64,000 nucleotides of DNA from an uncultured Candidatus Rokubacteria bacterium (GCA_963721815.1 CAVRLO010000024.1:806475-870474); one strand, 5' to 3'. Positions 1 to 64,000 are shown, counted from the stretch's first letter. Numbers and translations: made by a program. Notes: a model not told the origin generated them from the letters alone.

Positions 1-611
1 ATGTCGGCGAGGCTCAGGGCCAGGGGATGCCAGGCATCGCCGAGCAGCGCGACGCGCTTGAGCGCCGGCGACGAGATCGTGCCGGGCAGACCGCCGACCC
101 AGATCGGCGGGTGCGGCGTCTGGGAGGGCCGCGGCGCGAAGGTAGCGCCGGAGAAGGTCAGGTACTTGCCGGAGAAGCTCGGCTGGTCCGCGCTCCACGC
201 GGCCTTGATCACGCGCAGATACTCGTCGGTCTGCGCGCCACGCTGGCGAAAGGGCAGCCCGAGGTTGCGAAACTCCTCCTCGTCCCAGCCGACGCCGATG
301 CCGAAGATGAAGCGTCCGCGCGAGGCCTGGTCGACCGTCGCGGCCGCTTTCGCGGTTACCAGCGGATTGCGGTACGGCAGCACGATCACGCTCGCGCCGA
401 CATGGATCCGCTGGGTGCGCCCCGCGATGAACGCCAGGAGCGAGAACGGATCGGGCCAGTTCGGGCCGTAGTGCTGGGTGGTCGCCGGTGGCGCCAGGAT
501 GTGATCGGGCACGAACACGCCGTCCAGACCGAGATCTTCGGCTCTCAGCGCCAGGGTCTCCGCGTCGCGCACCGACAGTTGCCAGATCGGAAGAACCACG
601 CCGTATTTCAT
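1..611 (-). CDS. LLM-class (luciferase-like) flavin/F420-dependent oxidoreductase; C-terminus runs off the window
   Basis: Absent from the ORF track because there is no stop in the window. Manual reverse translation from ATG at 611-609 gives MKYGVVLPIWQLSVRDAETLALRAEDLGLDGVFVPDHILAPP...RFIFGIGVGWDEEEFRNLGLPFRQRGAQTDEYLRVIKAAW...HPPIWVGG. This is a typical luciferase-like monooxygenase N-terminal and central region, with GC-rich third codon positions. Confidence 0.75.
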   Translation of the reverse strand, partial: MKYGVVLPIWQLSVRDAETLALRAEDLGLDGVFVPDHILAPPATTQHYGPNWPDPFSLLAFIAGRTQRIHVGASVIVLPYRNPLVTAKAAATVDQASRGRFIFGIGVGWDEEEFRNLGLPFRQRGAQTDEYLRVIKAAWSADQPSFSGKYLTFSGATFAPRPSQTPHPPIWVGGLPGTISSPALKRVALLGDAWHPLALSLAD

Positions 612-778
612 CGCCGCCTCCAGATCTGCGACGGGCGCCATGCGGGCGTGCCGCCGCGATCGTCACGGTTTTGACCTGATCCGCGCCGCCGGCGTTACTC
701 TCCCACGCGGCCGCGGGGATGGCAATCTCGCCGTCCGGCTGCCGTGCTAGGCTCTCGATTCGTCACGCGGGAGGCGGT

Positions 779-1391
779 TTGACCAAGACACTGGATGAGC
801 TCCTGGCCGAGCTCGAGGAGTTCGGCAAGACCAACGACGGCTCGAACACCGAGCGGCCGCGGCGGATGCTGAACATCACGCGCGACACTGGCGAGCTCCT
901 GGCGGTGCTGGTCCGGGCGACCATGGCGCGGCGCGTGCTGGAGATCGGCACGTCGAACGGCTACTCGACCCTTTGGCTCGCGAGCGCCGCGCGTGCGATC
1001 GGCGGGTCGGTGACCACGGTCGAGCTCTCGGACGTACAAGATCGAGCTCGCCACCGCCAACTTCGCCCAGATCTGGCCTCGCCGCGCCTATCACGCTTCT
1101 CCATGAAGACGCCGGTCGCGTGCTCCAGCGCTCGGGCGACGGCGCGTTCGATCTCGTGTTCCTCGACTCCGAGCGCACGGAATATCCGGGATGGTGGCCG
1201 GCGCTCAAGCGTGTGCTGCGGCCCGGCGGGCTCCTGGTCGTCGACAACGCGACCTCGCACTCGGTCCGAGATGGCGCCGTTCGTGGCGCTGGTCTCGGCC
1301 GACGCCGCATTCGTCACGAGTCTCGTTCCCGTGGGCAACGGAGAGTTTCTCGCCGTGAAGGCCGATCAGGCATGGAGCGACCAGCACATGA
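779..1391 (+). pseudogene. class I SAM-dependent O-methyltransferase (caffeoyl-CoA OMT-like), reading frame broken 3-4 times
   Basis: A TTG start at 779 follows GGGAGG. The protein can be followed through three frames: [12 protein letters not shown]...[32 protein letters not shown] / [12 protein letters not shown] / [19 protein letters not shown]...[38 protein letters not shown] / [32 protein letters not shown]. The shifts lie near 1034, 1070 and 1262, all in the +1 direction. No in-frame stop precedes the next gene. Confidence 0.7.
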
Positions 1392-2369
1392 ACATCACGA
1401 TCCTCGACGACTACCAGGACACGATTCGCACGCTGACCTGCTATCCGAAAGTCGCCGGCCACCGGGTAACGATCTGGAACGATCACACCAAGGACGTCGA
1501 CGACGCTCGCCGGGCGGCTCAAGGACACCGAGGCGCTGGCACTGATCCGCGAACGCACGCCGATCCGCGCGCCCTTGCTCGAGCGTCTGGACAAGCTCCG
1601 GCTGATCAGCCAGGCCGGTGTCTTTCCGCATATCGACGTCGAGGCGTGCACGCGACGCGGCATCCTCGTGTGCTCGGCAGACCGGTCCCGGCCGCCCGTC
1701 GTACGCGACGGCCGAGCTCACGTGGGGACTGGTCATCGCGGCCTTCCGGCGCATCCCGCAGGAGATGAACGCGCTCAGGGCCGGCAAGTGGCAGGCCTAT
1801 CCGATCGGGATCGGCCTACGCGGCAAGACGCTCGGCATCTACGGCTACGGCAAGATCGGCGCGCGTCGTCGCCGGCTACGGCAAGGCCTTCGGCATGAAC
1901 GTGCTCGCGTGGGGCCGCGAGAACTCGGTGAACCAGGCGCGCGCCGACGGTTTCACGGTCGCCGCGAGCAAGGAGGCGCTGTTCGCCGAGTCGGACGTGC
2001 TCTCGCTGCACCTGCGGCTGATCGACGCGACCCGCGGCATCGTCACGGCCTCCGACCTGGCGCGCATGAAGCCGACGGCGCTGATCGTCAATACGAGCCG
2101 CGCCGGGCTCGTCGCGCCCGGGGCGCTCGAGGCGGCGCTCCGTGCCGGGCGGCCGGGCATGGCAGCCGTCGACGTCTATGAGGAAGAACCGGTGCTCGGC
2201 GGGCTCCACCCGCTGCTGTCGATGGACAACGTCATCTGCGCTCCGCACCTCGGCTACGTCGAGCGCGACGGCCTCGAGCACATGCTCGCCGGCATCTTCG
2301 ATCAGATCCTGGCGTTCGCCGGCGGCAAGCCGATCAACGTCGCAGAACCCGGAGGCGCTAAAGCGCTGA
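1388..2369 (+). pseudogene. D-isomer-specific 2-hydroxyacid dehydrogenase (phosphoglycerate dehydrogenase-like), 4 frame breaks
   Basis: The protein is pieced from ORFs 719.., 1575.., 1618.., 1895.. and 2142..: [16 protein letters not shown] / [46 protein letters not shown] / [22 protein letters not shown]...[14 protein letters not shown] (NAD-binding GxGxxG) / [10 protein letters not shown]...[11 protein letters not shown]...[13 protein letters not shown] / NPEALKR*. The shifts lie near 1505, 1685, 1865 and 2340. Confidence 0.75.
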
Positions 2370-3431: not shown

Positions 3432-4310
3432 CGCGAGCGGGGTGAGACCGGAAAGTACTTATCGAGCCAGTTGCGCAGGAGCGTGACGACCAGCGTGTTG
3501 CTCTCCGACAGCACGAAATGGTCGACCCCAGCGACCAGATGGAGGTCGGTCGGCTGACCGGCGTGGCGGAAGAGGTCGATCGACTGCTCGGTCGGCGTCA
3601 CCGAGTCGTTCGCGGGATGGAGCAGCAGGAGCGGCCGCGGCGAGATCTTGCCGACCACGTCGTTGGCCCGGAAGGCGTACATGCTTTCGACGACCTCGAA
3701 CGGAAACTCCATGATCGACCCCGGCGCCACGTTGCCGCGCAGGGCGGGCGGGATCGGCACGATGTCGTAGCGCTCCACCATGATCGATTCGCCCGTCTGC
3801 TCTCGGCGCCGGCGGCCCTCGGCTAGCATCGCCGTGAAGCGCGCCCACGCCTCCGGCGACTCGTGCTGCTTGCGAAACTTCTTCTCGCCGTCGCCCCAGC
3901 CGCCGGCCGAGACGCACGCGGCGACCCGCTGATCGACGCCCGCGGTGTAGACGGCGACCGCGGCGCCGAAGCTCGCCCCCATTACCCCGATGCGATCCGC
4001 GTCGATCTCGGGCCGGGTCGCGAGAAAGGCGAGGGCGCTCTGAGTGTCCTCGACCTGCTCGAGACAGATCACGCGCCCGCGCGACGCCCTCGCTCTGGCC
4101 GCAGCCGCGCATGTCGAATCGGAGCGCCGCATAGCCGAGCCCCGCGAACAGCTTCGCGCTGGCGACGCTGCCGCCGCTGTCCTTACTGCTGCCGAACCCG
4201 TGCAGGATCAGGAAGGCGGGCCGCCGCTCGCGCGGGCCGCGGGCGTCGGGCACGTGCAGCACGCCCGCGAGCTTCAGACCGCCGGAGACGAATGTGACCC
4301 GCTCTTCCAT
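3428..4310 (-). CDS. alpha/beta hydrolase, one frame break in this sequence
   Basis: The N-terminus (ORF 3459..4310) reads MEERVTFVSGGLKLAGVLHVP...AFLILHGFGSSKDS...RFDMRGCGQSEG. It continues in ORF 3428..4132 with RVICLEQVEDTQSALAFL...IGVMGASFGAAVAVY (GxSxG elbow)...LLLLHPANDSVTP...GVDHF. The shift lies near 4075-4085. GGGAGG precedes the ATG. Confidence 0.75.
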
Positions 4311-4326
4311 GGGGTCCTCCCGGCTA

Positions 4327-4690
4327 TCAGTTCTTCTTGAGGCGCACGTCTTCGAGCGGCGCCGACCACGGATACGGGTTGATCATCATGAGCGCTGGAT
4401 TCTCCGCGCGCGGCCCGATTCCGCTGGGCCAGATGTACTCGAAGATCGGCGCGATCCGCGTGCGCTCGTTCATGAGCTGCTGGATCTGGTGCAGGAGCGC
4501 CTCGCGCTTCTTCCGGTCCGGCTCGCGGCCCTGCTGCTTGTAGAGCGCGTCGTGTCCGGATAGCCCCGTAGGCAAAGGCGCCTTCGTTCGGATTCGTAGA
4601 GGTCGGCGGGGAGGTCCCGGTAGAACTGGAGAAGCTCGAGGGCGCTGGGCCGCGGACGGAACCCCAGCCCACATCCTCGACAGCGCAGCA
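4327..4690 (-). pseudogene. C-terminal remnant (about 110-120 aa) of a family-5 (peptide/nickel type) ABC substrate-binding protein
   Basis: Only the C-terminal end is present: ...NEGAFAYG / LSGHDALYKQQGREPDRKKREALLHQIQQLMNERTRIAPIFEYIWPSGIGPRAENPALMMINPYPWSAPLEDVRLKKN*. It is read across 2-3 frames. The remaining roughly 400 aa expected for such proteins are missing, and the preceding gene ends at 4792. Confidence 0.55.
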
Positions 4691-4791
4691 CGCGCCCCGG
4701 GGAGATGTCACGCCGCGAAGGACCGAAGGCCGACGGCGGCTCCCTCCTCTTGGCCCCCTCACGCCAGAGAGCGGACAGGGAGCTTCCCAGC

Positions 4792-6310
4792 TCACGAGGC
4801 GGGCGGGCGTGTCCCGGTCACGAGTTTCGCTCGCCGCGCGCGCCACGAGCCCCGTACGAGGCGCACGAGGGTAGAGAGGTAGTCCGGGCCCACGCGAAGG
4901 ACGCGGAACGAGGAACGTCCCATGTCGATTGTCCGGTTGATCCAGGACACAGGCACTTCCTGGATGTCGTGACCGGCCAGCAACGGCTTGAGCCCCGTCT
5001 CGACATTCGCAGCGAAGTGATTCTCCTCGAGGTCGAGATTCTTGAGGATGTCGGCCCGGTAGAGCTTGAGATTGTTGGAGATGTCGCGGACGCGGCTGGG
5101 GAGGAGCAGGTTCACGAGCAGGTGGAAGACACGGTTACAGAGGATTTTGAAGAAGGGATAGTTGATGAGCATCGACTCGTGAGAGAACCGACTGCCGATG
5201 GCGCCCGCATGTCCTTGCGCCACGGCGTCGAAGAGGTCCCGGAACTCGGGCACGATCTGCACGAAATCGCTGTCCGTGGTGAGAATGTAACGGCCGGTGG
5301 CCGCGGCGTACCCATCCCGAAGCGCACGTCCCACGCCGTTGGGCGGCTTGCGATCGACCAGCTTCACGCGGGGCTCCCGCCGGGCCACCTCCCGCGTGAC
5401 GTCCGCCGTCCGATCCGTGCTGTTGTCGTTCACGATGATGATCTCGTGCAGGTACGGCCCGTACATACCCACCAGCGCGTCCACGAGAGGCTCCACGTTC
5501 ATCTCCTCGTTGTGACAGGGGGCCACTACGGAGACGGAGGCACGCAACGCCTCGTGCTCGGCCAGGTTGACGAGGGGCCGGGGTTTTCCTCCCGGCTTCC
5601 GCGCCCATATGTAGAGCGTGCCGCACAGCTCGCGGATGAGGGGGGCGTGCTCCAGCACGAACCCGAGGGTCCGCACGACGGGAAGGAGGAGCCGAGGCGT
5701 GCGGGGATGCACGATGTCGTAAGGGATGACGTCGATGTGCGTGAATCCCTGATGCGAGCTCATCTGCATGAGGCGGTACTTGCGCAGCCCGATCTGGCAG
5801 CGCGCCTGCCCCGCCCACCGTCCGAGAGGCGGAATGGCGTTCTTGAGGAAGACCTGGGGATTCCAGTAGTTGGCCTCGAAGAAGATCAGCTGGCCGCCAG
5901 GTTTCAACACTCGCCAGAGTGCGCGCAAGGTCTGCGGGTACTGGTCGTGGCAAAGGATGGCAGTTCCCACATGCATAGTCGAAGGCGTCGGCGGGAAGAT
6001 CCTCGGTGAGGTCCGTGACCCCGCGGTAGGTCACGTTCGGCAGATGCCTCCCGCTTGCCCTGAGGAGGAGATCCTCGTTGAACACCGCGGCCGTGATGGG
6101 ATTCTCGCCCCGCAGGACGGCTGTGAGGTGCTCGGTCCAGAGCCCGCTGCCGGCACCGAGTTCAACGATGCTCTCCCCGGGCAGCACGTGGAAGCCATGG
6201 CGCACGGTGACGGCACGCCATCGCAGCTTCATGGGCGACGTGTGTGGATAGCGGAGCCAGTATGCCTCACGACTCCGCTCCATCTCGCGCAGGTTGGTCT
6301 CAACTGACAT
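4792..6310 (-). CDS. bifunctional class I SAM methyltransferase / family-2 glycosyltransferase (DPM1-like), one frame break
   Basis: The N-terminus (frame of ORF 5135..6343) reads MSVETNLREM...VELGAGSGLWTEHL...PADAFDYA. It continues in ORF 4792..5976 with VGTAILCHDQYPQTLRALWRVLKPGGQLIFFE, then a GT2 domain: VSVVAPCHNEEMNVEPLV...IIIVNDNSTDRTADV...GVGRALRDGYAAATGRYILTTDSDF. A single extra base lies near 5968-5972. An alternative start exists at 6343. Confidence 0.75.
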
Positions 6311-6367
6311 CGTTCGGCCGAGCGCGCGCGAGGTCGGGCCCATAGACAGGGCCGGCGCCCCCGAGAC

Positions 6368-6505
6368 GGATCATGACGACGCCGCCGCGTGGACGTCGCG
6401 GGCCAGCTCGTCCAGGATCGATGACAGCGATCGGGTGATGCGCCAGCCCGGGTAATCTCGCCGGAAGCGATTGAGGTTGCTGATGTAGCAGATGTAGTCC
6501 CCCAT
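6368..6505 (-). CDS. possible 45-aa hypothetical protein (below ORF-track cutoff)
   Basis: Manual translation gives [45 protein letters not shown]. It has GC-rich third positions and lies directly upstream of the MT-GT2 gene on the same strand. There is no clear RBS and I recognise no family. Confidence 0.2.
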
Positions 6506-6635
6506 CCGGGGCTGCTCTTCGTATCGTCACGATAGCTTCTCTGCTCTAGTTCATCAAGAGATGAGCCGGACGGTCCCGCGGCTGCGGCGAACGAAGCCTG
6601 TCCGACGAATGACTCGGCCGGCTAGCCCGATTGGC

Positions 6636-7125
6636 ATGGACGACGAAAAGAGGCTGAGAGACGAGCTGGACCGCGGGATGTCGCTGCCCGCGTCCTGGTA
6701 TACGTACCCCGCCCTGGCGGCGCGGGAGGACGATCGCATCTTACGCCGGGGCTGGCAGTACGTGAGGCGCGCCGAGCAGGTGCCCGCGTGGGCGACTTCT
6801 TCACCGGGGTCGTCGCGCAGGTGCCCGATCACTATCCTTGATCCTTGGCCCCGGGCCAACCGAACCTGTCGCTCGATGTCTGGATCCCCGCGGGGCCGGA
6901 GCGCACGCGGGGGTTCTCGGAGCACTGGTTCGGGCGGACGTGCCGGAGGCGTCGCGACAGGAGATGATCGCGTTCAATCGCCAGGTGAGCGGGGAGTACG
7001 ATCGCCTCACCGATTCCGTCCAGCGCGGCCTCCGGGCCGGGCTGCCCGCCCGCGGACGCTTCCTGACCCGGAGCGAGCACCTGATCGTCCACTTCCAGCG
7101 GCTCGTGCTGGATGCCCTCGCATGA
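6636..7125 (+). pseudogene. remnant of a Rieske-type aromatic ring-hydroxylating oxygenase alpha subunit (N- and C-terminal ends only; Rieske domain missing)
   Basis: The N-terminus reads MDDEKRLRDELDRGMSLPASWYTYPALAAREDDRILRRGWQYVRRAEQVPA. After frame changes the C-terminal part follows: SLDVWIPAGPERTRGFSEHWF.../ DVPEASRQEMIAFNRQVSGEYDRLTDSVQRGLRAGLPARGRFLTRSEHLIVHFQRLVLDAL. No CxH...CxxH Rieske motif appears in any frame. The total is about 165 aa, against the 350-450 aa typical of the family. Confidence 0.6.
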
Positions 7126-7228
7126 GGGCCCGGGCCGCGTGGACGAGGTCGACGCGTCGTTGAAGAGCTGGGTCCAGATCGGCCCGATGCCGAGATACGT
7201 CTACGCCGGATACTCGCGTGCCGTCCGG

Positions 7229-9128
7229 CTACGGCGCGATCTGACGCCGGCGCAGCTCCTCCAGGATCTGCCCCGCGCACTCGTCCGGCGTCGCGTCCGC
7301 GGTGTGGACCACGATGTCCGGGTGCTCCGGCACTTCGTAGGGAGAGTCGATGCCAGTGAAGTTCTTGATCTTGCCCGCCCGGGCGCGGGCATAGAGGCCC
7401 TTGGGGTCGCGCCGCACGCACTCCTCGATCGGAGTGTCGACGAAGATCTCGATGAAGTCGCCCGGTTCCACCAGGTCGCGCACCACGCGGCGCTCGGCCC
7501 GGAAGGGTGAGATCAGCGAACACAGCACGATCACCCCGGCATCCGCGAAGAGCCTGGCCACTTCGCCCACGCGGCGGACGTTCTCCACCCGATCGGCCTC
7601 GGTGAAGCCGAGGTCGCGATTCAACCCGTGCCGCACGTTGTCGCCGTCGAGGATGTAGGTGTGCACGCCGCACGCATGTAGCTCGCGCTCGACGAGATTC
7701 GCGATCGTGCTCTTGCCCGAGCCGGACAGACCCGTGAACCACAGGATGACCGCCCGGTGCCCGTTGAGGGCGACCCGCGCCGCCTTGTCGATCGATAGGC
7801 GCTGCGGGTGCACGTTCGTCGCCCGGCGCAAGCCGAAAGAGATCATTCCCGCGCCTGCCGTCGCATTCGTGAAGCGGTCGATGAGGATGAACGCGCCGGT
7901 TGCCCGATTGTCGGTGTACGGATCGAAGGCGACCGGGCGGGCGGTGGCCAGGTTGCACAGGCCGATCTCATTGAGGGTGAGCGTGCGCGCGGCGACGTGC
8001 TCGAGGGAGTTGGGGTCGACCTTGTGCTTCAAACGGGTCACCCGGGCGGGCACGTAGCGCGTCCCGATCCGCAGGAGGTAGGAGCGCCCGGGCAGCATCG
8101 CCTCGTCGGTCATCCAGAGCACGTGCGCGGCGAACTGGTCCACGACCTCGGGGCGCGCGCTCGCATGGGCGAGCACGTCGCCGCGGGCCACGTCGATGTC
8201 CTCGCTGAGCTGGATCGTCACCGTATCTCCGGCCCGCGCCTCCGGGCGATCGCCGTCATAGGTGACGAGGCGCGCTACCGTCGATTCCACGCCGGACGAG
8301 GCGACGACCACGCGATCCCCGCGCCGCACGACACCGGACACCACCGAGCCGGAGAGGCCGCGGAAGTCGGGATCGGGCCGATTCACCCACTGGACCGGGA
8401 ACCGAAAGGGCTTCGTCTTCCAGGGCGTGATACACCTCCACGGACTCCAGGTACTCCAGCAGTGGCGGACCGTCGTACCATCGCGTGCGGTCGGAGCGGC
8501 TCGTCACGTTGTCGCCGTGGCGGGCGGAGATCGGAATGGCCGTGATCGAGTCGAAACCCAGGGATCCGGCGAAGGCGAGGTAGTCCCTGACGATGTGATC
8601 GAAGCGCGCGCCCGAGTACTCGACGAGGTCGATCTTGTTGATTGCCACGACGATGTGACGGATACCGAGCAGTGAGCAGATGTAACTGTGGCGGCGCGTC
8701 TGAGTGAGGACGCCCTTCCGGGCGTCGATCAGGATCACGGCGAGGTCGGAGGTGGACGCGCCGGTGGCCATGTTGCGCGTGTACTGTTCGTGCCCAGGAG
8801 TGTCGGCCACGATGAACGCACGCCGGGCGGTCGCGAAGAACCGATACGCCACATCGATCGTGATGGCCTGCTCCCGCTCGGCCTCGAGGCCGTCCACGAG
8901 GAGGGCGAGATCGATTTCATCTCCGGTGGTGCCGTACTTGCGGGAGTCGCGCTCCAGCGCGCTCAGCTGGTCCTCGGGGATGAGCCGGGCGTCGTACAGC
9001 AGCCGTCCGATGAGTGTGGACTTGCCGTCGTCGACCGAGCCACACGTGAGGAACTTGAGCAGGTCCTTCTCGCCCGCGGCTGGCGCCGGTGGCGGGGCGG
9101 GCGGGCGAGGCCCCGGCTCGGCGGTCAT
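7229..9128 (-). CDS. cysNC: bifunctional sulfate adenylyltransferase subunit 1 / adenylylsulfate kinase (CysN-CysC fusion, NodQ-like), one frame break
   Basis: The GTPase motifs are [17 protein letters not shown] and NKIDL (ORF 8256..9287 from M54). The frame then shifts near 8408-8411 at a GGG/CCC run into ORF 7229..8386 ([20 protein letters not shown]...). The APS-kinase P-loop is [15 protein letters not shown], followed by [22 protein letters not shown] overlap links it to cysD. Confidence 0.9.
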
Positions 9129-10054
9129 CAGAAATACCCCTCCCGCTTCTTGCGCTCCATCGAGGCTGGCTGGTCGGTGTCGATGAGCCGACCCGATCGC
9201 TCGGAGGTGCGCGTCGAGAGCATCTCCGCGACGATCTCGTCGAGAGTGGCGGCCGTGCTTTCGATGGCGGCCGACAGGGGATAGCAACCGAGGGATCGAA
9301 AGCGCACCACGCGCACCTGTTCCACTTCCCCCGGGAGCAGCGGTAGACGGTCGTCGTCGCGCACGATCAGTGCTCCGTCTCGGGTGACCACCGGTCGCGG
9401 GGCAGCGAAATACAGCGGCACGACCGGGATGTTCTCGGCGCGCGTGTACCGCCAGATGTCGAGCTCGGTCCAGTTCGACAGCGGAAACACCCGAATGCTC
9501 TCGCCCCGGTTGATCTTCGTGTTGTAGAGGTGCCAGAGCTCGGGGCGCTGATTGCGCGGGTCCCAGACGTGTCCGGCCGATCGGAAGGAGAAGATCCGCT
9601 CCTTGGCCCGGCTCTTCTCCTCATCGCGGCGAGCGCCGCCGAAGGCCGCGTCGAAGCCCCACTTGTCGAGCGCCTGCTTCAGGGCTTCCGTCTTCATGAC
9701 CTGGGTGTGAAGCTCTGAACCGGAGGTGATCGGGTTGATTCCTCGCGCGACGCCCTCCGGGTTCGTATGGACGAGGAGCTTCAGCCCGCAGCGCGATACA
9801 GTCGAATCGCGGTGGCGGATCATGTCGCGGAACTTCCAGCCCGTGTCCACGTGCAGCAGCGGGAACGGCGGCTTGGACGGGTAGAACGCCTTCAGGGCGA
9901 GATGGAGCATCACGCCCGAGTCCTTGCCGGTCGAGTAGAGCATCACCGGGTTGACAAATTCCGCCGCCACCTCGCGGATGATCGAGATCGATTCGGATTC
10001 GAGCCGCTTGAGATGCCTGGACAGTGGCGGGGATTGGGGCTCCGGCGTACTCAT
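9128..10054 (-). CDS. cysD: sulfate adenylyltransferase subunit 2
   Basis: Intact ORF. From M31 of ORF 9128..10144 it reads [56 protein letters not shown] (PAPS-reductase-like SxGKDS loop)...[13 protein letters not shown]...RIFSFRS...[11 protein letters not shown]...[16 protein letters not shown]...[11 protein letters not shown]. Confidence 0.92.
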
Positions 10055-10373
10055 AGTCCGATCAGGCCTCAGGTGGCAGGGGATGGAGGTGTACGTCCGC
10101 CGGCCCCGTCGTTCGACTCTCGCCCCGTCTGCTGGCGCGTCCACTGGTCATTTGTTCTTCCGCGGGCACGACTCCGTCCCGGCCGCTGATCGGCGTGGCC
10201 GGCCACGGTGCGAGCCGACGGCGCGCGTGACACAGGATCCGATCGTGCGGTAGAGACGGCGATCGTGTCAAGGAGGACATGGCGCGGCGTTCGCGTGTCG
10301 TCGAGAAGGGGAGTCCTGGTCGAACGGGCATTGAGGCCCGGGACGCGCGGCCGAGCTCGTGTGGCAGGACTGC

Positions 10374-11999
10374 TCAGGGGCGTCGCACCAGGATCCGGTA
10401 ATCGTCCGTGTCCCGGACTGGGACGAACTCAGAGCGGAGGAAATCGTCCAGCACGAACACGTGGCTGGACACCGCGCTGAGATTCGGCTCCTCGGGCAGC
10501 ACGCCCTTCCAGACCACGATCGTCCGAACATTGTTCCTCCGCAGCTCCGCCACGATGCGTTCCTGTACCGCTTGCGTGGTGGTCAGACCCGGAATGAAGT
10601 CGTGGAAGTACGTTCCGCTGGCGCGGCCGGACAGGAAGTAGAGGATCACCGCGTTGTCGTGCACGCGGTCATGACGCATCGAGGCGACCAGGATGCGCGG
10701 ATCCGAATCCTTCGCGTCGATGTCGGCCACGGCACGCGATAGCCCGGCCAGCTGCTCCGGGACGACAATGCCGGTTGCCCTCGCCAAGCCCAGGGGGGCG
10801 TACCCGGCGACCGCGCTCCGCTGTGCCACGGACATCCCGACGAGCGCCACGCCGATGAGCACGGAGAGGCAGGCGCTGAGCAACCGGGCCTCCCAAGAGC
10901 CCGCACGCCGCTCCAGCACGGATGCCAGGATGAGAGAGGTCGCGCAAACGCACAGGACGTGGAGTGGGTAGACGTGGTAGAAGTCGGACCTTCCCAGCGC
11001 GTACATCGACAACCCGAGCGCCAGCGTCAGCACGAAGAGCAGCACCCGGGCTCGGCCCTCCATCTCGAGCGTTGCCCGACGCACGAGCGGTAGGGCCAGG
11101 CTCAGCACCGCGCCGAGTCCCACAAAGGGCGTGAGGAGGACGCCCGCGCGCACTGCCTGCACGACCGCGGGAGGGCCAATGCTCTCCATCGCTCGCAGGG
11201 ACCAGTACAGCCGTCGCAGTTCGTACGAGTACGGGAGATCCCGGTAGGCGAGCGAGGTCGCCGGGAAGACCACCAGCGCTTCGAGCACGCGCCACACGCC
11301 ACCCGCCGCGAGGAGGCCGTAGACGGGTCCCACGACGAGGGCAATGCCCAGCGCCAGACACCCGAGCGACCGCGCCACTGCAGCCAGCCCGACCCATCTC
11401 TGTCGGCGGCCCGGTCTGGACACAGCGATCCCCACCTGGATGACAACGGCGGCGACCGCGCCATACGCGCCGACGTCCTGGCGGAACAGCGCGGCCAGGC
11501 CCACGAGTAAACCAGCGGCCAGGCACCGGAGGCAGCCTCGGGGGACAAGGCCTCGGGTGGGCGCGGAGGTCCCGGTGAGCACGGCGCCCGCGGCCAGGAC
11601 CAAGGAGAACGCGGGGTCGCACGCATGGAGCAGGTCACCCCGATAGAGAGGTACCAGCAGGGCGACTACGGGCATCAACGACCAGCGCACTGGGAGAGCT
11701 GCACTCCGGCAGAGCGCGAAAAGTGCCGCCGCAGCCACCGCGCCGAAGAAGAGGTTTCCCAGGCGCGCCACCAGGACTTGGGTGCCGAAGAGCCTGAACA
11801 GGAGCGCCGGCCAGTAGAACTGGGCGGGGCCGTAGTAGGTGAAGACGTCACGGTAGGGAAGGTCTCCGGCCAGGATGCGCTGGGCGCCGTAGAGACGTAG
11901 GCCCTCGTCGTAGACATTGAGACCGGTCCCCGCGATCGGTAGCCAGTAGACGACCGCCAGCGCGAACACGCCGAGATAACCGATCGCGCTACGACTCAC
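10374..11999 (-). CDS. polytopic membrane protein, GT-C-fold glycosyltransferase-like (ArnT/PMT-type)
   Basis: Intact 541-aa ORF with a GTG start. It has more than 10 hydrophobic segments. Its first loop, LNVYDEGLRLYGAQRILAGDLPYRDVFTYYGPAQFY, resembles the acidic first loop of GT-C enzymes. A soluble C-terminal domain of about 120 aa follows. The family call is by resemblance only. Confidence 0.5.
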   Translation of the reverse strand: MSRSAIGYLGVFALAVVYWLPIAGTGLNVYDEGLRLYGAQRILAGDLPYRDVFTYYGPAQFYWPALLFRLFGTQVLVARLGNLFFGAVAAAALFALCRSAALPVRWSLMPVVALLVPLYRGDLLHACDPAFSLVLAAGAVLTGTSAPTRGLVPRGCLRCLAAGLLVGLAALFRQDVGAYGAVAAVVIQVGIAVSRPGRRQRWVGLAAVARSLGCLALGIALVVGPVYGLLAAGGVWRVLEALVVFPATSLAYRDLPYSYELRRLYWSLRAMESIGPPAVVQAVRAGVLLTPFVGLGAVLSLALPLVRRATLEMEGRARVLLFVLTLALGLSMYALGRSDFYHVYPLHVLCVCATSLILASVLERRAGSWEARLLSACLSVLIGVALVGMSVAQRSAVAGYAPLGLARATGIVVPEQLAGLSRAVADIDAKDSDPRILVASMRHDRVHDNAVILYFLSGRASGTYFHDFIPGLTTTQAVQERIVAELRRNNVRTIVVWKGVLPEEPNLSAVSSHVFVLDDFLRSEFVPVRDTDDYRILVRRP

Positions 12000-12169
12000 G
12001 TCGGTGATACCCTGCCGGGAGATCCAGCACGTGCACCACTCGCGCTAGATCGAAGCGACAACGTTACACCGGCGTCGCCGGTCGACCGGCCACCAACAGG
12101 ACACGAGAAAAGGGCACGGTGCAGGTACCGCCCGGGTCGGGGGCCGATCGGGACCGAAGGCCAGCCGCG

Positions 12170-13738: not shown

Positions 13739-13783
13739 ACCAGGCCAGCGCCGTCATGGACTGGCGCCTCATCCGACCGCAAC

Positions 13784-47662: not shown

Positions 47663-47667
47663 GCGGC

Positions 47668-49445: not shown

Positions 49446-49465
49446 CGTCGCTCGGGCTGTCGGGC

Positions 49466-49840: not shown

Positions 49841-49981
49841 GGTCGCACCTCCTTGGCTTCACGGTGCGACGGCCCATGGCCCGCGGCAATTACGCGCGAG
49901 GTAATGGCCGGTCATAGCGCGCGGAATCCCTCCCATCCATCCCGGCGTCACACGCTCGCCTGGCCGGCCGGCGCCGGTGAC

Positions 49982-50306: not shown

Positions 50307-50315
50307 ACGACGCGC

Positions 50316-50760: not shown

Positions 50761-50887
50761 CGTTCGCCTCCCGTTCGCCGAGGATTCTTCGAGAATCCGA
50801 GCGACGTCCGCCGTCGAGGACACGCCGGATCAATGTTCTGGGAGTAGAATGCGGGCCCGACGGTAACGAGGAGGAGGCTGAGCGTCC

Positions 50888-52060: not shown

Positions 52061-52064
52061 GGCG

Positions 52065-52457
52065 ATGACGACGACAGAGCGGAAGTACCCGGCGCCGGCC
52101 GTCAACCCGGAGATCAAGCCCTTCTTCGACGCGGCCGCGAAGGGCACGCTGATGCTCAAGAAGTGCGCGGCGTGCGGCCAGGCGCATCACTATCCGCGCG
52201 CGATCTGCCCGTTCTGCGCGAGCGACCGGACGGAGTGGATCACCGCGTCGGGCCGGGGCACGATCTACTCCTACAGCGTGATGCGGCGGGTGCCGGTGCC
52301 CTACGCCATCGCCTACGTGACCCTCGAGGAAGGCGTGACGATGATGACCAACATCGTCGACTGCGATCTCGACGCCATCCGCATCGGCCAGCGGGTGAAG
52401 GTGGTCTTCAAGCCGACCGACGGCGGGCCGCCGGTCCCGATGTTCACGCCGGCCTGA
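52065..52457 (+). CDS. Zn-ribbon/OB-fold protein (DUF35), usual partner of the thiolase-like protein
   Basis: Intact 130-aa ORF: LMLKKCAACGQAHHYPRAICPFCAS (rubredoxin-like CxxC...CxxC)...GRGTIYSYSVMRRV...VTLEEGVTMMTNIV. Confidence 0.8.
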   Translation: MTTTERKYPAPAVNPEIKPFFDAAAKGTLMLKKCAACGQAHHYPRAICPFCASDRTEWITASGRGTIYSYSVMRRVPVPYAIAYVTLEEGVTMMTNIVDCDLDAIRIGQRVKVVFKPTDGGPPVPMFTPA

Positions 52458-52475
52458 GCGGCCGGCGCGTCGCGG

Positions 52476-53230
52476 ATGGCGGAGCTGTACGACGAGATCG
52501 GGCCGGCTACCGCGCGCGCCGCCGCCCCGATCCGCGTCTCGCCGCGGCGATCATGCGCGCGCTGAAGGGGACGGAGACGGTCGTGAACGTGGGCGCCGGC
52601 GCCGGCTCCTACGAGCCCGCCGATCGCTGCGTGGTCGCCGTCGAGCCGGCGATGACGATGATCCGCCAGCGGCGCGCCGGCAGCGCCCCGGTCGTGCAGG
52701 CCTCGCCGCCGAGCTGCCGTTTCGGGACGACGGGTTCGCTGGCGCGCTGGCCATCCTCACCGTGCATCACTGGTCCGATCGGGCGCGCGGGCTCGACGAG
52801 CTCGGGCGGGTGGCTCGCGCCGGCGCGATCGTCATCGTCACCTGGGACCCGTCGGCCGCGGGCTTCTGGCTGGCCGACGATTACTTTCCCGACGTCGTCG
52901 ACATCGACCGCCGGCATCTTTCCGACGATCGACGAGTTCCGGCGCGCGCTCGGGCGCGTGTCGAGGTGCGCCCGATGCCGATTCCCCACGACTGCGTCGA
53001 CGGGTTTCTCGGCGCCTACTGGCGCCGGCCCCACGCGTATCTCGATGCGGGCGTGCGCGGCGCGATCTCCGCCTTCGCGAGGCTTCACGCCGTCGGCGGC
53101 GACCTCGAGGGGCTCGCGCGGCTGCGGCGCGATCTCGACGACGGCACCTGGGCGCGCCGTTACGGCGATGTCCTCGACGCGGTCGGAGATCGATCTCGGC
53201 TACCGGATCGTGATCGCCGCGAAACGCTGA
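52476..53230 (+). pseudogene. class I SAM-dependent methyltransferase, about 5 frame breaks
   Basis: The pieces are MAELYDEIG / YRARRRPDPRLAAAIMRALKGTETVVNVGAGAGSYEPADRCVVAVEPAMTMIRQR / LPFRDDGFAGALAILTVHHWSDRARGLDELGRVARAGAIVIVTWDP...FWLADDYFPDVVDIDRR / FPTIDEFRRALG / VEVRPMPIPHDCVDGFLGAYWRRPHAYLDAGVRGAISAF / SEIDLGYRIVIAAKR*. Confidence 0.7.
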
Positions 53231-53250
53231 CGCGAGCCGGGCGCCGCCCG

Positions 53251-54316
53251 CTAGGCGCAGGCGACGGTGTAGACGTCCTTGACCTCCGGCGGCAGCCGCC
53301 ATTCCTTCCAGGTCTTGCCGCCGTCACGCGTGCCGAAGACCTGACCCAGGCGCGCGACGCTGTAGACCTGCTCGGGATCGCGCGGGTGGAGCGAGACGGC
53401 CATCATCGTGCTCTCGGCCTTGATCGCCGTGGTCGATGCGCCGCCAGGTCTGTCCCAGATCGTCGCTGCGATAGAGCGAGCCGTCCGTGCTGCGCGCCGC
53501 CGGGCTGAGCGCGGCGACCAGGGTTCTCGGGTCGTGCGGCGAGACCACCACGTCGCGCGCGTACGTCAGCGGCGAGAAGCGGCCGATCTCCATGTCCTGC
53601 CACGTCTGGCCGCGGTCGGCGCTGCGGAAGAGGCCCATGCGCACGGCGAGGAACACGGTGCCGGGCAGCGCGCTCGACACGGTGAGGGCGTGGGTGTCGA
53701 GCATGCCCTCGTTCTCGGTGTCGCTGGCGATGCGGCTCTTGAGGTGCGGCCGCTCGGCGAGCTTGACGAGATCGTCGCCGATGTCTTCCCAGGTCTCGCC
53801 GCGATCCCGGCTGCGCAGCACGCCGTCGACCTCGAGCCCCGCGTAGATCTCGTCCGGGCTCGACGGATCGATCGCCAGGCGGGTCACGCGGCACGGGAAG
53901 TTCATCTTCACGCGTCCCGGCGAGGTCACGCGCGGCAGCTTGCGCCAGCTGTCGCCGCCGTTGTCGCTCCTGTAGACCGCGACAGGCGAGGTGCCGAGAT
54001 ACATGGTGCGGGGATCACGCGGATGAATCAGGATCGACCACACCTCCAGCCCCGCGTCGGGGAAGGGGAGCTTCTCCCAGCTCGCGCCGCCATCCCGGCT
54101 CCGGTACGGGCCGTCCTGGGACCCGGCGAAGATCAGGCTCGAATCGGTGGGATGAATGGTGATCGCCTGGACGTCCATGCGCTCCGGCAATCCCTTGCCG
54201 AGGCGCTCCCACTGATCGCTGCCCACGGTTTGCCGGAAGATCCCCGAGACGGCCCCAGGGACACGCGCCGCCGTACCGACGTAAACATGCGAGGTTCCTG
54301 ACGCGTTCGCCATCAT
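53251..54316 (-). CDS. BNR/Asp-box repeat (sialidase-like/Ycf48-like beta-propeller) protein, one frame break
   Basis: Repeated SxDxGxTW boxes are present: SRDGGASWEKL, SDNGGDSWRKL, SRDRGETWEDI, SADRGQTWQDM and SDDLGQTWRRI. After a shift near 53425 comes TRDGGKTWKEW, with the end at ...YTVACA*. Confidence 0.75.
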
Positions 54317-59452: not shown

Positions 59453-60707
59453 ATGGCCAAGCGTCTTACCGCGGTGCTGCTCGCGGTCATTCTCTCCGCG
59501 TGCGCGCCTCCGGCGCCGCGGTCGGATCCTGCTGGGCCCCGCTTCGCGCAGAGCGGCCCAGACGCGGATGAGCTGGGCGCCCGCGAGGGTTATCCGATCG
59601 GCGATCGTGCGACCTTCTTCCGCGTACCCTTCATCGTCGGTTCCCAGAGTCATCAGGACGAGATATTCCCGAGTCGGCTGGTCCGTGCGGGAACGCCATC
59701 GTCCCTCGCGAGGGCGGGGTCCGAGCCGGCGCTGCGCTACGACTACCAGGGACGGCACCTTCGTCCTCGACGACTATCTGGCACGCAACCCCGCGACCGG
59801 GCTCCTGGTCGCCCGCGACGACACGATCTTCGTCGAGCGCTACCAGTACGCGCGGACCGACCGCGATCGGTTCACCTCGTGGTCGATGGCCAAGACCGTC
59901 ACGTCGATGCTGATCGGCATCGCGATCGACGAAGGGCGCATCCGGTCGGTGGACGACCCCGCCGCGACCTACGTGCCCGCGCTCGCCGGTACCGAGTACG
60001 GGCGGACGTCGCTGCGGCACCTGCTGCAGATGTCGTCGGGCGTGCGCTTCGTCGAGGAATACCGGCCGGGCGACGACGTCTCGAAGCTGGCCAGCGACAC
60101 GTTCCGGCAGCTCGGGCCCGGCGGCGTCACCTCGGTGACCTCCTTCAACGAGCGCGCCGTCGCACCCGGCACCAAGTTCTCGTACGCGTCGGTCGAGACG
60201 GAGGTGCTGGGGCTCGTTCTGGTGTCGGCCGTCGGCGGCTCGATCTCCGAGTACCTGCAGGAGAAGATCTGGAAGCCGATCGGCGCCGAGGCCAACGCCT
60301 CCTGGATCATCGATCGCGCGGGCCAGGAAGTGACGTTCTGCTGCTTCAATGCGGTCCTGCGCGACTACGCACGGCTCGCCCTGCTGCTGGCCCACGACGG
60401 CAACTGGCGCGGGCGGCAGATCATCCCGGCGGCCTGGGTCCTGGAGGCGACCAGCGTTCGCGCCGACCAGCCGCACCTGCGCCCCCGCACCGCGACGCCC
60501 TTCTTCGGTTACGGCTACCAGACCTGGATCTTTCCTGGAGACCGGCGGATGTTCGCGCTTCTCGGCGTCCGCGGTCAGGCGATCTACGTCGATCCGGGGA
60601 GCCGGCTCGTGATGGTGACGACCGCGGCGCGCAAGCTCCCCGTCGACCCGGGCGTCGCGGAGGCCGGCGCCCTCTGGCGCGCCGTCACGCGCGATCTGGG
60701 CCGCTAG
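59453..60707 (+). CDS. serine hydrolase (beta-lactamase/transpeptidase-like) lipoprotein, one frame break
   Basis: The lipobox is MAKRLTAVLLAVILSAC. After a shift near 59750 comes DGTFVLDDYLARNPATGLLVARDDTIFVERY...FTSWSMAKTVTSMLIGIAI (SxxK)...FSYASVETEVLG...GYGYQTWIF...GQAIYVDP. Confidence 0.8.
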
Positions 60708-60711
60708 CGCG

Positions 60712-61809
60712 ATGGCGACGGCCTACCGCGCCGAGGTGATCGGCAGCCTGCTGCGCCCGACCTACCTGAAGGACGCGCGCCAGCGCCACGCCTCGCGATC
60801 GATCAGCGACGCCGAGCTCAAGCGTGCGGAGGACCGCGCCGTCGACGAGGCGGTGCGACTTCAGATCCGCGCGGGCGTGTCGGTGATCACCGACGGCGAG
60901 ATGCGGCGCTACGCGTACTTCGGACACTTCATCGACGCGATCGAGGGCTTCGACAAGTTCGGCGGCTGGGCGATTCCATTCCGGGACGCGCAGGGCAACG
61001 AGCTTCTCTTCCAGCGCCCCGTCGTGGTCTCGCGGCTCCGGCGCCGGCGCCATCTGTGCGCCGAGGAGTTCACCTATCTGCGGGCGCGCACCGAGCGTCC
61101 GACGAAGGCGACGTTGATCAGCGCCCTCAACACGACGTCGTACTACGACCCGGACAAGTCGACGGGCGCCTACCCGACACGGGACGCCTATCTGAGCGAC
61201 GCGGTAGACATCCTGCGCGGCGAAGTGGACGAGCTCGTGCGGCTGGGCTGCACCTACATCCAGATGGACGGGCCGCCCTACACGCTCTTGATGGATCCGG
61301 CCACCCGCGAGGGCTTCCGTCGCCGCGGGACGGACCCCGAGCGCCTCATCGATCTCGGCATCGAGATGGACAACGCCGTGATCGGCAACCATCCAGGGGT
61401 CACCTTCGCGCTCCACCTGTGCCGCGGCAACAACCAGAGCAAGTTCATCGGCAGCGGCGGCTACGATCCCATTGCGGCCAAGTTGTTCCGCGCGAGCCAC
61501 TTCGCGCGCTTCCTGCTGGAGTACGACGACGCCCGCTCCGGGAGCTTCGAGCCGCTGCGGAACGTGCCCGACGATCGCACGGTCGTGCTGGGGCTCATCA
61601 CGACCAAGCACGCCGCGCTGGAAAGCAGGGCAGATCTCGCGGGACGGATCCGCGAGGCGTCCGCCTTCGTGCCGCTCGAGCGGCTGGCACTGAGCCCACA
61701 GTGCGGCTTCGCGTCGACCCAGGAGGGCAACCTTCTGACACCGGCCGATCAGGACGCGAAGCTCGCGCTCGTCGCCGCGACCGCGCGCGAGGTCTGGGGC
61801 GGCTCGTGA
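60712..61809 (+). CDS. cobalamin-independent methionine synthase II (MetE C-terminal domain-like) family protein
   Basis: Intact 365-aa ORF: MATAYRAEVIGSLLRPTYLKDAR...VITDGEMRR...YIQMDGP...ALHLCRGN...ERLALSPQCGFAS. Confidence 0.75.
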   Translation: MATAYRAEVIGSLLRPTYLKDARQRHASRSISDAELKRAEDRAVDEAVRLQIRAGVSVITDGEMRRYAYFGHFIDAIEGFDKFGGWAIPFRDAQGNELLFQRPVVVSRLRRRRHLCAEEFTYLRARTERPTKATLISALNTTSYYDPDKSTGAYPTRDAYLSDAVDILRGEVDELVRLGCTYIQMDGPPYTLLMDPATREGFRRRGTDPERLIDLGIEMDNAVIGNHPGVTFALHLCRGNNQSKFIGSGGYDPIAAKLFRASHFARFLLEYDDARSGSFEPLRNVPDDRTVVLGLITTKHAALESRADLAGRIREASAFVPLERLALSPQCGFASTQEGNLLTPADQDAKLALVAATAREVWGGS

Positions 61810-61849
61810 AGGGCGACCGCGTATACTCGGGGCCCGGAGGCCAGGGCCA

Positions 61850-63043
61850 GTGAGCATCCGCGCGATCCGCTGCGGCACACTCTTCGACGGTGCTGGTGGC
61901 GCCCCGATCCGCGACGCGGTGGTCATCGTCGATGGCAACCGCATCACGGCCGTCGGACCGGCCGATCGCACGCCGCCGCCGCCGGGCGCCGCGACCCTCG
62001 ACCTCAGCAACCGGTTCGTGATGCCCGGGCTGATCGACTGCCACAGCCACGCCTCGATCGTGCCCGGCCTCGGCGATCAGCTGGGTCAGCTCTGTCGCGG
62101 TCCCGTGCCGCAGGCGCTCGCCGCGACGGCGAATCTACGAGCGGACCTCGCCGCCGGGACGACGACGATGCGGATCATGGGCGAGGAACACTTCCTCGAC
62201 ATCGAAGTCCGGGACGCCATCGAGGCCGGTGTGATCGCCGGTCCGCGCCTCCTGGTGGCGGGGCGCGGCCTTGCCGCCAACAACGGCCACGGCCGGGCGC
62301 TCGCCAGCTACGACGGCGTCGACGAGGTGCGCCGCGGCGCGCGCGAGAATCTCCGGCGCGGGGCGAATCACGTGAAGATCTTCGTCACCGGCGGCGTCAG
62401 CTCGCCCGGCGCGATGTCGACCTCGAGCGCGTACACGCGCGAGGAGATCCGGGCCGCCGTCGAAGAGGCGCACCGGGCCGGCACCTACGCAGCTGCCCAT
62501 GCGCACGGCGGCGCAGGCCTGCGGCTCGCGGTCGAAGAGGGAGTGGGCACGATCGAGCACGGCCTGCTGGCCGGCGACGAGGACGTCGCCCTGATGGTCG
62601 AGCGTCGCGTCTGGCTCATCTGTACGTTCTCGATCTTCATGCATCCGACCGGCATCGAGCAGGGCGACGGCCAGCGCCCGGCCATCATGGACAAGGTGCG
62701 CTGGGCCCGTCGCGTGGTCGACGAGACGTTCCCGCGCCATCTGGCCTCGGGCATCCGCTTCGCGTGCGGCACCGACAGCATGCACGGGCTGATGCCGATC
62801 GAGCTCGAGACGCTCGTGAGCTTCGGCGTGTCGCCGCGCGACGCCCTGCTGGCCGGTACGCGCTGGGGGGCCGAGGCTTGCCGGATCGACGACCAGATCG
62901 GGACCCTGGTGCCGGGCAAGCGCGCCGACCTGATCGCGATCGACGGCGATCCGCTGAAGGACATCCAGGCGATGCGGCGCGTAAGTCTGGTCATGAAGGA
63001 TGGAGTGCCCTACGAGGGAGTCTTCGGGAGGAATGGGCGATGA
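61850..63043 (+). CDS. amidohydrolase family protein (imidazolonepropionase/prolidase-like metal hydrolase)
   Basis: Intact 397-aa ORF with a GTG start. The sequence includes MPGLIDCHSHAS, HVKIFVTGG, AAHAHG, IEHG, CGTDS and PGKRADLIAIDGDPL. Confidence 0.8.
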   Translation: MSIRAIRCGTLFDGAGGAPIRDAVVIVDGNRITAVGPADRTPPPPGAATLDLSNRFVMPGLIDCHSHASIVPGLGDQLGQLCRGPVPQALAATANLRADLAAGTTTMRIMGEEHFLDIEVRDAIEAGVIAGPRLLVAGRGLAANNGHGRALASYDGVDEVRRGARENLRRGANHVKIFVTGGVSSPGAMSTSSAYTREEIRAAVEEAHRAGTYAAAHAHGGAGLRLAVEEGVGTIEHGLLAGDEDVALMVERRVWLICTFSIFMHPTGIEQGDGQRPAIMDKVRWARRVVDETFPRHLASGIRFACGTDSMHGLMPIELETLVSFGVSPRDALLAGTRWGAEACRIDDQIGTLVPGKRADLIAIDGDPLKDIQAMRRVSLVMKDGVPYEGVFGRNGR

Positions 63044-64000
63044 GCAGAGCGATCACGAGGCGTGAGTGGCTCCATCGGACGGGCGGGCTGGCGGTCGGCG
63101 CGGGGCTCGGCTCGCTCATCGGCGAGCAGGGCGTCAGGCCGGCGATGGCGCAGGGGCAACCCAAGCGGGGCGGCATGCTCCGCGTGGCCACCGTCGACAA
63201 GCCCGTGAACATGGATCCCGGCTACGCCCAGCTCTATTCGTCGCTCCAGGTTTATCAGAACGTTTACAACAAGCTCGTCTACGTGGACGAGACGGGCCAG
63301 TTCGTCCCCGGTCTGGCGAAATCCTGGAAGCAGGAAGACGACAAGACCTGGCTTTTCGACCTCGTCGACAACGCGGTGTTCCACAACGGCGAGCCGTTCA
63401 CGGCGAAGGACGTCGCTTTCACGTTCGCGCGCATCCTGGACGCGAAGAACAAGCTGCCGATGCGCATCTTCTTCACGCCGGTCGAGGGCGTGGAGGCGGT
63501 CGGACAGCATCAGGCGCGCTTCCACCTGAGCCGGCCCTGCGGCCCGCTCCTGGCCATGCTGTCCCAGGCCACCGAGATCGTGAACGAGAAGGCGCTCAAG
63601 GAGAAGGACCCCAAGCTCTTTCCGATCGGCACCGGGCCTTACCGCTTCGTCGAGTGGGTGAAGGACGATCACATCACGCTCGATCGCTGGGAGAAGTACC
63701 ATCGGCCCGGCCGTCCGTACCTCGATCGGATCATGTTCTACGCGCCCGCCGACGACACCGTGCGGCTCACCGGGCTACAGACCGGACGCTTCAACTGGAT
63801 CCAGACGGTTCCGCCGCAGCGCATCGGCGAGCTGGAGCGCTCGCGCGACATCAAGTCGTCGGCCGGCCGCCCGTACTTTCCGTTCTTCTTCATGCTCAAC
63901 GCGAGCAAGCCGCCGCTCGCCGACAAGCGCCTGCGCCAGGCGATTGCGTGGGCGCTCGACCGGACCGAGATCGTGAAGCTGGTCTACTACGGTAGCCACG
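63040..64000 (+). CDS. ABC transporter substrate-binding protein, family 5 (peptide/nickel type), Tat signal; 3' end beyond the window
   Basis: Absent from the ORF track because there is no stop in the window. The ATG at 63040 overlaps the upstream stop (ATGA). Manual translation gives MSRAITRREWLHRTGGLAVGAGLGSLIG...AQGQPKRGGMLRVATVDKPVNMDPGY...GTGPYRFVEWVKDDHITLDRWEKY..., in frame to position 64000. Confidence 0.8.
   Translation, partial: MSRAITRREWLHRTGGLAVGAGLGSLIGEQGVRPAMAQGQPKRGGMLRVATVDKPVNMDPGYAQLYSSLQVYQNVYNKLVYVDETGQFVPGLAKSWKQEDDKTWLFDLVDNAVFHNGEPFTAKDVAFTFARILDAKNKLPMRIFFTPVEGVEAVGQHQARFHLSRPCGPLLAMLSQATEIVNEKALKEKDPKLFPIGTGPYRFVEWVKDDHITLDRWEKYHRPGRPYLDRIMFYAPADDTVRLTGLQTGRFNWIQTVPPQRIGELERSRDIKSSAGRPYFPFFFMLNASKPPLADKRLRQAIAWALDRTEIVKLVYYGSH

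Follow-up and report, generated by a model that had tools for sequence, protein, structure and literature searches.

Clustered single-base frame breaks in a Rokubacteria soil genome are very probably errors of the deposited consensus

The window analyzed here is a stretch of 64,000 nt (C24:806475-870474) from G000, the 6.98-Mb genome of an uncultured Candidatus Rokubacteria bacterium, deposited in 31 contigs with a GC content of 68%. We find that at least 62 frame-breaking indel sites interrupt at least 21 of the approximately 62 coding units in this window, and that these breaks are very probably errors of the deposited consensus, so that the organism itself most likely carries intact genes. 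The breaks are specific to this assembly, occur genome-wide, are biased toward insertions, ignore both sequence context and codon phase, are over-dispersed, and come with no sign of decay; we therefore read them as assembly errors. An earlier reading of the window, made from the sequence alone (the sequence-only reading), had counted about 50 breaks in at least 20 genes, and both figures were borne out, the number of breaks being somewhat larger than claimed. The organism is a member of the Methylomirabilota (Rokubacteria): close homologues of the window’s proteins are labelled Methylomirabilota or Candidatus Rokuibacteriota by their sources. Because 31-mers of the window are present in many soil and rhizosphere metagenomes, G000 is a soil metagenome-assembled genome (MAG).

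Breaks were located by two routes. A codon-usage model trained on 1,472 long open reading frames (ORFs) of G000 was applied to the window through a seven-state Viterbi decoder (non-coding plus six frames), which returned 36 switches between frames of one strand, each at a distance of more than 30 nt from the stop codon of the frame being left. Independently of codon usage, the window was aligned to the syntenic regions of four genomes of the same genus (G013, G014, G012 and G006; 84-91% identity), all gaps were listed, and a gap was scored as a site when the length difference was not a multiple of three and the relatives were concordant among themselves. This comparison with close relatives, which the sequence-only reading had proposed, gave 53 sites private to the window: 36 of +1, four of +2, ten of −1, and one each of −2, +5 and −7. 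Changes of 1-2 nt account for 50 of the 53, and sites with extra bases outnumber those with missing bases by 40 to 11, an insertion to deletion ratio of about 4:1. As a fifth, independent reference we used the Joint Genome Institute (JGI) metagenome contig L019 (94.5% DNA identity over 36803-44376), which sided with the congeners at all sites that it covers (17 of the 53, at 36.8-44.4 kb) and added the sites 40078 and 40137. At 44170, 44224, 45550, 45665 and 45976 the extra base is missing from short contigs of four other soil metagenomes, and at 45276 these contigs have an added base. Approximately nine further breaks, in DNA that is missing from the relatives, were placed by the Viterbi model together with (except at the candidate site 17376) Pfam domains spanning the junctions, and complete the total.

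The inserted bases show no preference for their surroundings. Among the single extra bases, 25 of 36 are unlike both neighbors; they stand in runs of one (25), two (7) or three (4) bases, none in a run of four or more, and this run-length distribution is that of a randomly chosen base. The remark of the sequence-only reading that several breaks lie outside homopolymers is thus upheld, and a homopolymer preference, tested on these 36 insertions, was not found. Insertions are also spread uniformly over the three codon slots (11.7/11.9/12.4). Since there is no link to homopolymers, the errors resemble stochastic read errors that escaped averaging, and not systematic homopolymer errors. Raised substitution error was looked for in the hot patches described below and was not seen, the errors being essentially indels only.

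Apart from the shifts, the broken genes read as ordinary proteins. Every gene identity that had been proposed was confirmed by Pfam, and the domains run unbroken across the junctions, as in Amidohydro_1 (residues 1-345/345), ECH_1 (5-249/251), Bac_luciferase (1-314/314) and 2-Hacid_dh_C (2-178/178). Our counts of breaks per gene agree with the earlier ones for the thiolase-like gene (3) and the methyltransferase at 52.5 kb (5), and the amidohydrolase, for which at least 5 had been claimed, has 7. The O-methyltransferase, with 3-4 breaks against a claimed 4, comes out about as claimed, and the lactonase one lower (7 against about 8), while four genes are more heavily affected than had been thought: the 2-hydroxyacid dehydrogenase (5 against 4), the CydDC-like ABC transporter (8 against 4), the enoyl-CoA hydratase (5 against 3) and the DUF2214 gene (about 7 against 3). 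In the transporter, the breaks at 40078 and 40137 account for an apparent arrangement as two genes; on L019 (2468-6052) the CydD-like and CydC-like halves form one intact fused gene encoding an ABC transporter of 1194 aa. With its seven sites removed, the amidohydrolase becomes a protein of 459 aa that is 96% identical to its best intact homologue, and the same length of 459 aa is found in more than 100 intact homologues among the best 120 of 2,660 proteins (E<=1e-100). L019 encodes an amidohydrolase 96% identical to that of the window. The restored amidohydrolase is the only result we use from a longest-ORF check of the corrected genes, which for some genes returned spurious ORFs on the opposite strand of this 68%-GC DNA.

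The breaks are clumped, and the non-random distribution described by the sequence-only reading lies beyond anything seen in simulation. With 62 sites in 64 kb, the largest break-free gap is 16,460 nt, compared with a simulated mean of 4,802 and a maximum of 13,949 in 100,000 trials (Monte Carlo p<1e-5), and the variance/mean ratio in 2-kb bins is 5.1, compared with a simulated 99.9th percentile of 1.93. Five patches of 1-3.3 kb (0.7-2.3, 12.3-13.3, 39.6-41.3, 43.1-46.0 and 50.1-53.4 kb) carry 5-7 sites/kb each, and isolated sites outside them form a background of about 0.18/kb. All of the long clean stretches named earlier were recovered, with no break at 19735-36190, 46.0-50.1, 53.4-57.1 or 59.8-64.0 kb. 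The frame changes at 19.8-36.0 kb all fall at stop codons and are therefore ordinary gene boundaries, and alignment to the congeners revealed no window-specific indels at 19.7-21.6 kb.

We next consider whether the breaks could be genuine. The sequence-only reading had kept as its alternative a recent relaxation of selection on catabolic genes, in which particular genes lost their function and the indels are real mutations. The indels do sit in the deposited sequence, and they are concentrated in accessory-type metabolic genes (amidohydrolase, lactonase, thiolase-like gene and methyltransferases); however, the genes show none of the other damage that decay would bring. Not one in-frame stop occurs in the 7,557 frame-corrected codons of the window, which also bears out the earlier observation that the translations look normal and lack premature stops other than those caused by the shifts. 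In a comparison of the kind that the sequence-only reading had itself proposed, broken genes show 16.6, 8.4 and 52.1 substitutions per kb on the window’s lineage at the first, second and third codon positions, and intact genes 17.4, 10.4 and 65.2. Changes at the first two positions relative to the third give a ratio of 0.48 for broken and 0.43 for intact genes (Fisher p=0.44), the broken genes have no higher absolute rates, and their private substitutions still fall mostly at third positions. Single genes bear up to 8 indels without other damage, and 7-8 real frameshifts in one gene without relaxed constraint are not credible. Natural bacterial indels favor homopolymer runs and deletions, the opposite of the fourfold excess of insertions without homopolymer preference seen here. 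Moreover, the defect extends over all 31 contigs of G000, is absent from five independent references, and has a counterpart in different genes of G012. We consider genuine pseudogenes very improbable on these grounds and reject relaxed selection as the cause.

Mass pseudogenization is a feature of reductive evolution, as in Mycobacterium leprae and recently host-restricted bacteria. The window resembles such genomes in the large share of interrupted genes (at least 21/62 coding units), but differs in having no nonsense mutations, larger deletions or non-synonymous rise, in the dominance of insertions, in belonging to a 7-Mb free-living soil genome, and in having congeners that are intact at every site. 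It is extremely improbable that the extra bases are real, the products of a localized process in this soil population (error-prone repair or synthesis tracts of about 1-3 kb, for example) that scattered context-free insertions over many genes so recently that no other decay has yet followed. The cell might, finally, decode the shifts by programmed ribosomal frameshifting, transcriptional slippage or insertional RNA editing, and the frames are indeed otherwise open; yet the shifts number up to 8 in a gene and go both ways, the sites lack a common motif or slippery run, and orthologues are in frame, with the sites unconserved in any relative, so that the chance of this is vanishingly small.

The defect is not confined to the window. 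Applied to the whole of G000, the same detector flagged 3,373 candidates over the 6.98 Mb (0.48/kb), with every one of the 31 contigs affected and with extra and missing bases in a ratio of 2550:823 (about 3:1). As the detector catches 36 of the 62 sites in the window, the true load of the genome is probably near 0.8/kb. Candidate density varies 15-fold among contigs, from 0.06 (C8) to 0.95 (C1) per kb; the variance/mean ratio in 10-kb bins is 6.2, and 16.8% of such bins are empty where 0.9% would be expected. Clumping by gene is accordingly no argument for biology by itself: with errors over-dispersed to this degree (variance/mean of about 6 in 10-kb bins), the Poisson argument that had been made from the clean stretches is unsafe. 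The marker-based completeness of G000 is only 66%, despite its 7 Mb in 31 contigs.

The load of candidates differs sharply among the congeners. The fragmented genomes G013, G014 and G006 together gave 1 candidate in 102 kb (0.01/kb), whereas G012, which like G000 combines high contiguity with low completeness (40 contigs, 87% complete), gave 21 candidates in 48.5 kb (0.43/kb), at positions different from those in the window. The private indels of G012 are also mostly extra bases, for example opposite window positions 17923, 18489, 19711, 47026, 58109 and 58130 (L013-L015), and G012 is probably another error-laden long-read MAG. The defect thus goes with the type of assembly and not with ancestry. 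Breaks that are genome-wide, assembly-specific, insertion-biased, context-independent and over-dispersed also support what the sequence-only reading had favored, an artefact of locally variable assembly quality as opposed to uniform noise.

From this profile we infer both the long-read platform and local read support as the cause of the patches; almost certainly, the reads behind the assembly were long, error-prone and of modest depth. Under such a scheme, random single-base read errors, mainly spurious extra bases, would be averaged out wherever enough consistent reads overlapped and would survive at about 0.5-0.7% where read support was poor. If read support fluctuated over approximately one read length, the outcome would be patches of 1-3 kb, clean stretches between them and a thin isolated background. 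Patches with at least three candidates have, genome-wide, a median length of about 1 kb (90th percentile 2.9 kb, maximum about 11 kb), which is on the scale of such read-length-sized fluctuations. Candidate density is also 1.9-fold higher in the final 1 kb of contigs, a rise that we attribute to read support, which must fall there. The clean stretch of 16.5 kb largely coincides with an accessory island that carries an IS481 transposase, and the fraction of its 31-mers found in soil metagenomes is 0.72, compared with 0.31 for 42-46 kb; as a single case, the widespread occurrence of the island’s 31-mers fits better read support in this stretch.

Three observations weigh against this account of the breaks. 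Candidates are only modestly enriched at contig ends, and clustering inflates the p-value of that enrichment. The luciferase-like monooxygenase break at 36191 is a deficit of 7 nt, unlike the single-base type found elsewhere, and may reflect either genuine divergence or an error of another sort. In addition, an insertion-biased, non-homopolymer profile is unlike the residual errors of well-covered assemblies, so that the fit rests on errors that were not averaged out. Two other origins of the hot patches were tried and rejected. Hot patches are not segments so conserved with congeners that they recruited foreign reads, since identity is 0.897 in hot and in cold 500-nt bins alike (rho −0.02); nor are they paralogous or repeated DNA, a paralogue at >=75% identity existing for 6.6% of hot compared with 3.5% of cold bases.

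Consensus errors could also have become patchy through mixed data types, if a long-read draft had been corrected with short reads only where their depth sufficed, so that clean stretches are polished and hot patches unpolished. The two sharply distinct rate classes in the window, 5-7/kb in patches and about 0.18/kb elsewhere, would suit such a history. So would the dependence on base composition: genome-wide, candidate density climbs about threefold with local GC, from 0.27/kb below 66% to 0.86/kb above 71.6%, as the coverage bias of short reads in 70%-GC DNA would produce. Either partial polishing with short reads or an error rate that depends on GC would give such a trend, but detection that is more sensitive where codon bias is stronger may account for part of it, and isolated errors remain inside the clean stretches (19731, 57132 and 59755). 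We regard partial polishing as possible, though rather doubtful.

A mixture of strains offers another route to extra bases, because a consensus called from a mixed pile-up may write two alleles side by side at variable sites. Ten of 33 single-base insertions lie in a pair of unlike neighboring bases of which one is matched by one congener and the other by a second congener (for example 1033 CG, 45549 GA and 53424 TC), about a twofold enrichment over the 14.5% obtained for random simulated insertions (p=0.015). In 534-nt bins, more indels go with a greater summed depth of similar contigs (at least 92%) from four other soil metagenomes (rho 0.39-0.59), although this correlation comes from 30 autocorrelated bins and from other samples. 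The longest of these contigs are 93-97% identical to the window in the hot patch at 43.1-46.0 kb and 99-100% identical in the cold segments 36.3-37.7 and 42.0-42.5 kb. Yet if bases were doubled at polymorphic sites, the slot between the first and second codon positions should be spared, and the slots are hit evenly; nor is indel density related to divergence from the congeners (rho ~0). A strain mixture is therefore an unlikely explanation of the breaks, and with the flat codon slots arguing against it as the main source, we retain side-by-side alleles as a minor contributor only.

Consensus errors of this general kind have precedents. Spurious frameshift pseudogenes are a known product of low coverage and of long reads (PMC11017572, Cooley & Wright 2024; PMC12007338), and soil long-read assemblies contain more of them than gut assemblies (PMC13087279; IDEEL-type tests). 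G000 is like such assemblies and MAGs in that single-base indels split conserved genes genome-wide, completeness is low despite contiguity, the breaks are absent in relatives, and no sign of decay accompanies them. The error type is different, however. Residual PacBio errors are mainly homopolymer errors, with G/C deletions in high-GC genomes (PMC8574707), and the indel errors of a Nanopore assembly profiled with Kastor consisted mostly of false deletions tied to homopolymers (PMC12007338), whereas the breaks described here are mostly insertions without homopolymer preference. The marked patchiness at a scale of 1-3 kb is likewise not described in PMC12007338 or PMC8574707. In Trypanosoma brucei Lister 427, the collapse of two haplotypes into a mosaic consensus produced artefactual frameshifts (PMC8445201). 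That case also involves a long-read consensus of a heterogeneous template, gene-truncating errors dominated by indels, and a very uneven density of variants; it differs in concerning a diploid eukaryote with phased alleles, while a strain mixture is only a candidate here and is not supported as the main source by the codon-slot test.

The positions of the breaks and of the stretches between them are collected in Table 1.

Table 1 Frame breaks and clean stretches along the window (positions in nt unless marked kb).
Feature	Position	Strand	Sites or genes	Evidence
Hot patch 1	707..2342	+	Nine sites: 707-713 (−1); one extra base each at 1033, 1069, 1260, 1385, 1502, 1677, 1863, 2342	Window-specific compared with 2-4 congeners; Methyltransf_3 and 2-Hacid_dh_C domains unbroken across junctions
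Genes of hot patch 1	782-~1290; ~1390-2371	+	O-methyltransferase; D-2-hydroxyacid dehydrogenase	
Scattered breaks in or beside accessory island 1 (4.6-17.7 kb)	4078..17376		The next six rows	Viterbi switches far from any stop codon
Alpha/beta hydrolase breaks	4078/4082			Viterbi and Pfam across junctions; 4082 also +1 compared with G013
Methyltransferase-GT2 fusion break	5974			Viterbi and Pfam across junction
CysN/CysC break	8420			Viterbi and Pfam across junction
Amine-oxidase-like gene breaks	12273, 12404, 12461			Viterbi and Pfam across junctions
Methyltransferase breaks	13122, 13317			Viterbi and Pfam across junctions
Arylsulfotransferase-like gene, candidate break	17376			Viterbi only; no Pfam domain across junction
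Stretch without breaks	13.8-17.3 kb			
Isolated extra base	19731..19734	+	Truncates xanthine-dehydrogenase-family molybdopterin subunit (17777-20136)	+1 compared with all four congeners; MoCoBD_2 domain ends at 219/283 at the ORF end
Clean stretch, 16.5 kb	19735..36190			All frame changes <=18 nt from a stop codon; ORFs full length, domains complete
Luciferase-like monooxygenase break	36191..36208	-	Gene 36011-37046	Window 7 nt shorter than two congeners; Bac_luciferase complete
Hot patch 2	39623..41266	+	CydD/CydC-like ABC transporter (38301-41890); extra bases at 39626, 40078, 40137, 40316, 40353, 41124, 41131, 41266	Congener alignment; L019, where the gene is intact
Hot patch 3	43141..45976		About 20 sites in 2.8 kb	Window-specific compared with 3-4 congeners, and with L019 as far as 44376; Pfam domains run unbroken over junctions
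Amidohydrolase (hot patch 3)	42638-44046	-	43141, 43295, 43386, 43505, 43524, 43758, 43914	
Enoyl-CoA hydratase (hot patch 3)	44047-44856	-	44165, 44224, 44545, 44565, 44587	
SMP-30/gluconolactonase (hot patch 3)	~45.1-46.05 kb	+	45199, 45276, 45550, 45617, 45665, 45762, 45976	
Clean stretch	45977..50139		Tannase/feruloyl esterase 46079-47662 and neighbors	No window-specific frame-changing indel; Tannase 7-490/490
Hot patch 4	50140..53425		About 24 sites in 3.3 kb: DUF2214 membrane protein, about 7; thiolase-like 50888-52057, 3; methyltransferase 52538-53182, 5; spacer 53232-53252 (+5); BNR-repeat protein, 53424	Congener alignment; Pfam domains unbroken
Stretch without breaks	53.4-57.1 kb			
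Isolated extra base	57132	+	Near 3' end of hydantoinase-A-like gene (55243-57250)	+1 compared with all four congeners
Isolated extra base	59755..59756	+	Beta-lactamase-family gene (59416-60703)	+1 compared with three congeners; Pfam Beta-lactamase match covers residues 124-418, downstream of the junction
Clean stretch to window end	59757..64000			Viterbi and congener alignment

Two accessory islands and one repeat stand out in the window in their own right. Island 1 (4600-17700, 13 kb) is absent from the syntenic locus of five congeners and encodes a CysN/CysC fusion (7253-9129), an arylsulfotransferase-like protein (16067-17528), a methyltransferase-GT2 fusion (4858-6299) and further methyltransferases; it may be a sulfation or glycosylation island. 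Island 2 (21650-36000, 14 kb), which is break-free and also absent from the congeners’ locus, contains a double alpha/beta hydrolase, a GH2-like protein of 938 aa, the IS481-family transposase (30584-31777), an ABC sugar uptake system (32485-35619), and a cluster at 26470-30108 with DUF1839, class II aminoacyl-tRNA synthetase (aaRS)-like and acyl-CoA-dehydrogenase-like genes and a phosphopantetheinyl transferase (PPTase) fragment. Of its sampled 31-mers, 72% occur in soil metagenomes of many studies, compared with 31% of those from 42-46 kb. An intergenic repeat of about 85 nt at 44918-45002 has at least 38 more copies in G000 (76-89% identity) and occurs in congeners as well; an Rfam search with it gave no significant match, and it may be a REP- or MITE-like element (repetitive extragenic palindrome; miniature inverted-repeat transposable element). 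Elsewhere in G000, the modelled coding fraction is also low in contigs C7, C8 and C11 (0.68-0.71), which may not belong to the bin.

The breaks are not a biological feature; they are a quality flag on G000 and G012. Their type, insertion-biased, independent of homopolymers and patchy, differs from that in most polishing benchmarks. The warning about data quality matters because G000 is a species representative in a public taxonomy, with a completeness that is underestimated at 66%. At least a third of the genes in the window would be called fragments or pseudogenes, and gene loss, metabolic gaps or selection inferred for this organism from G000 would be wrong.

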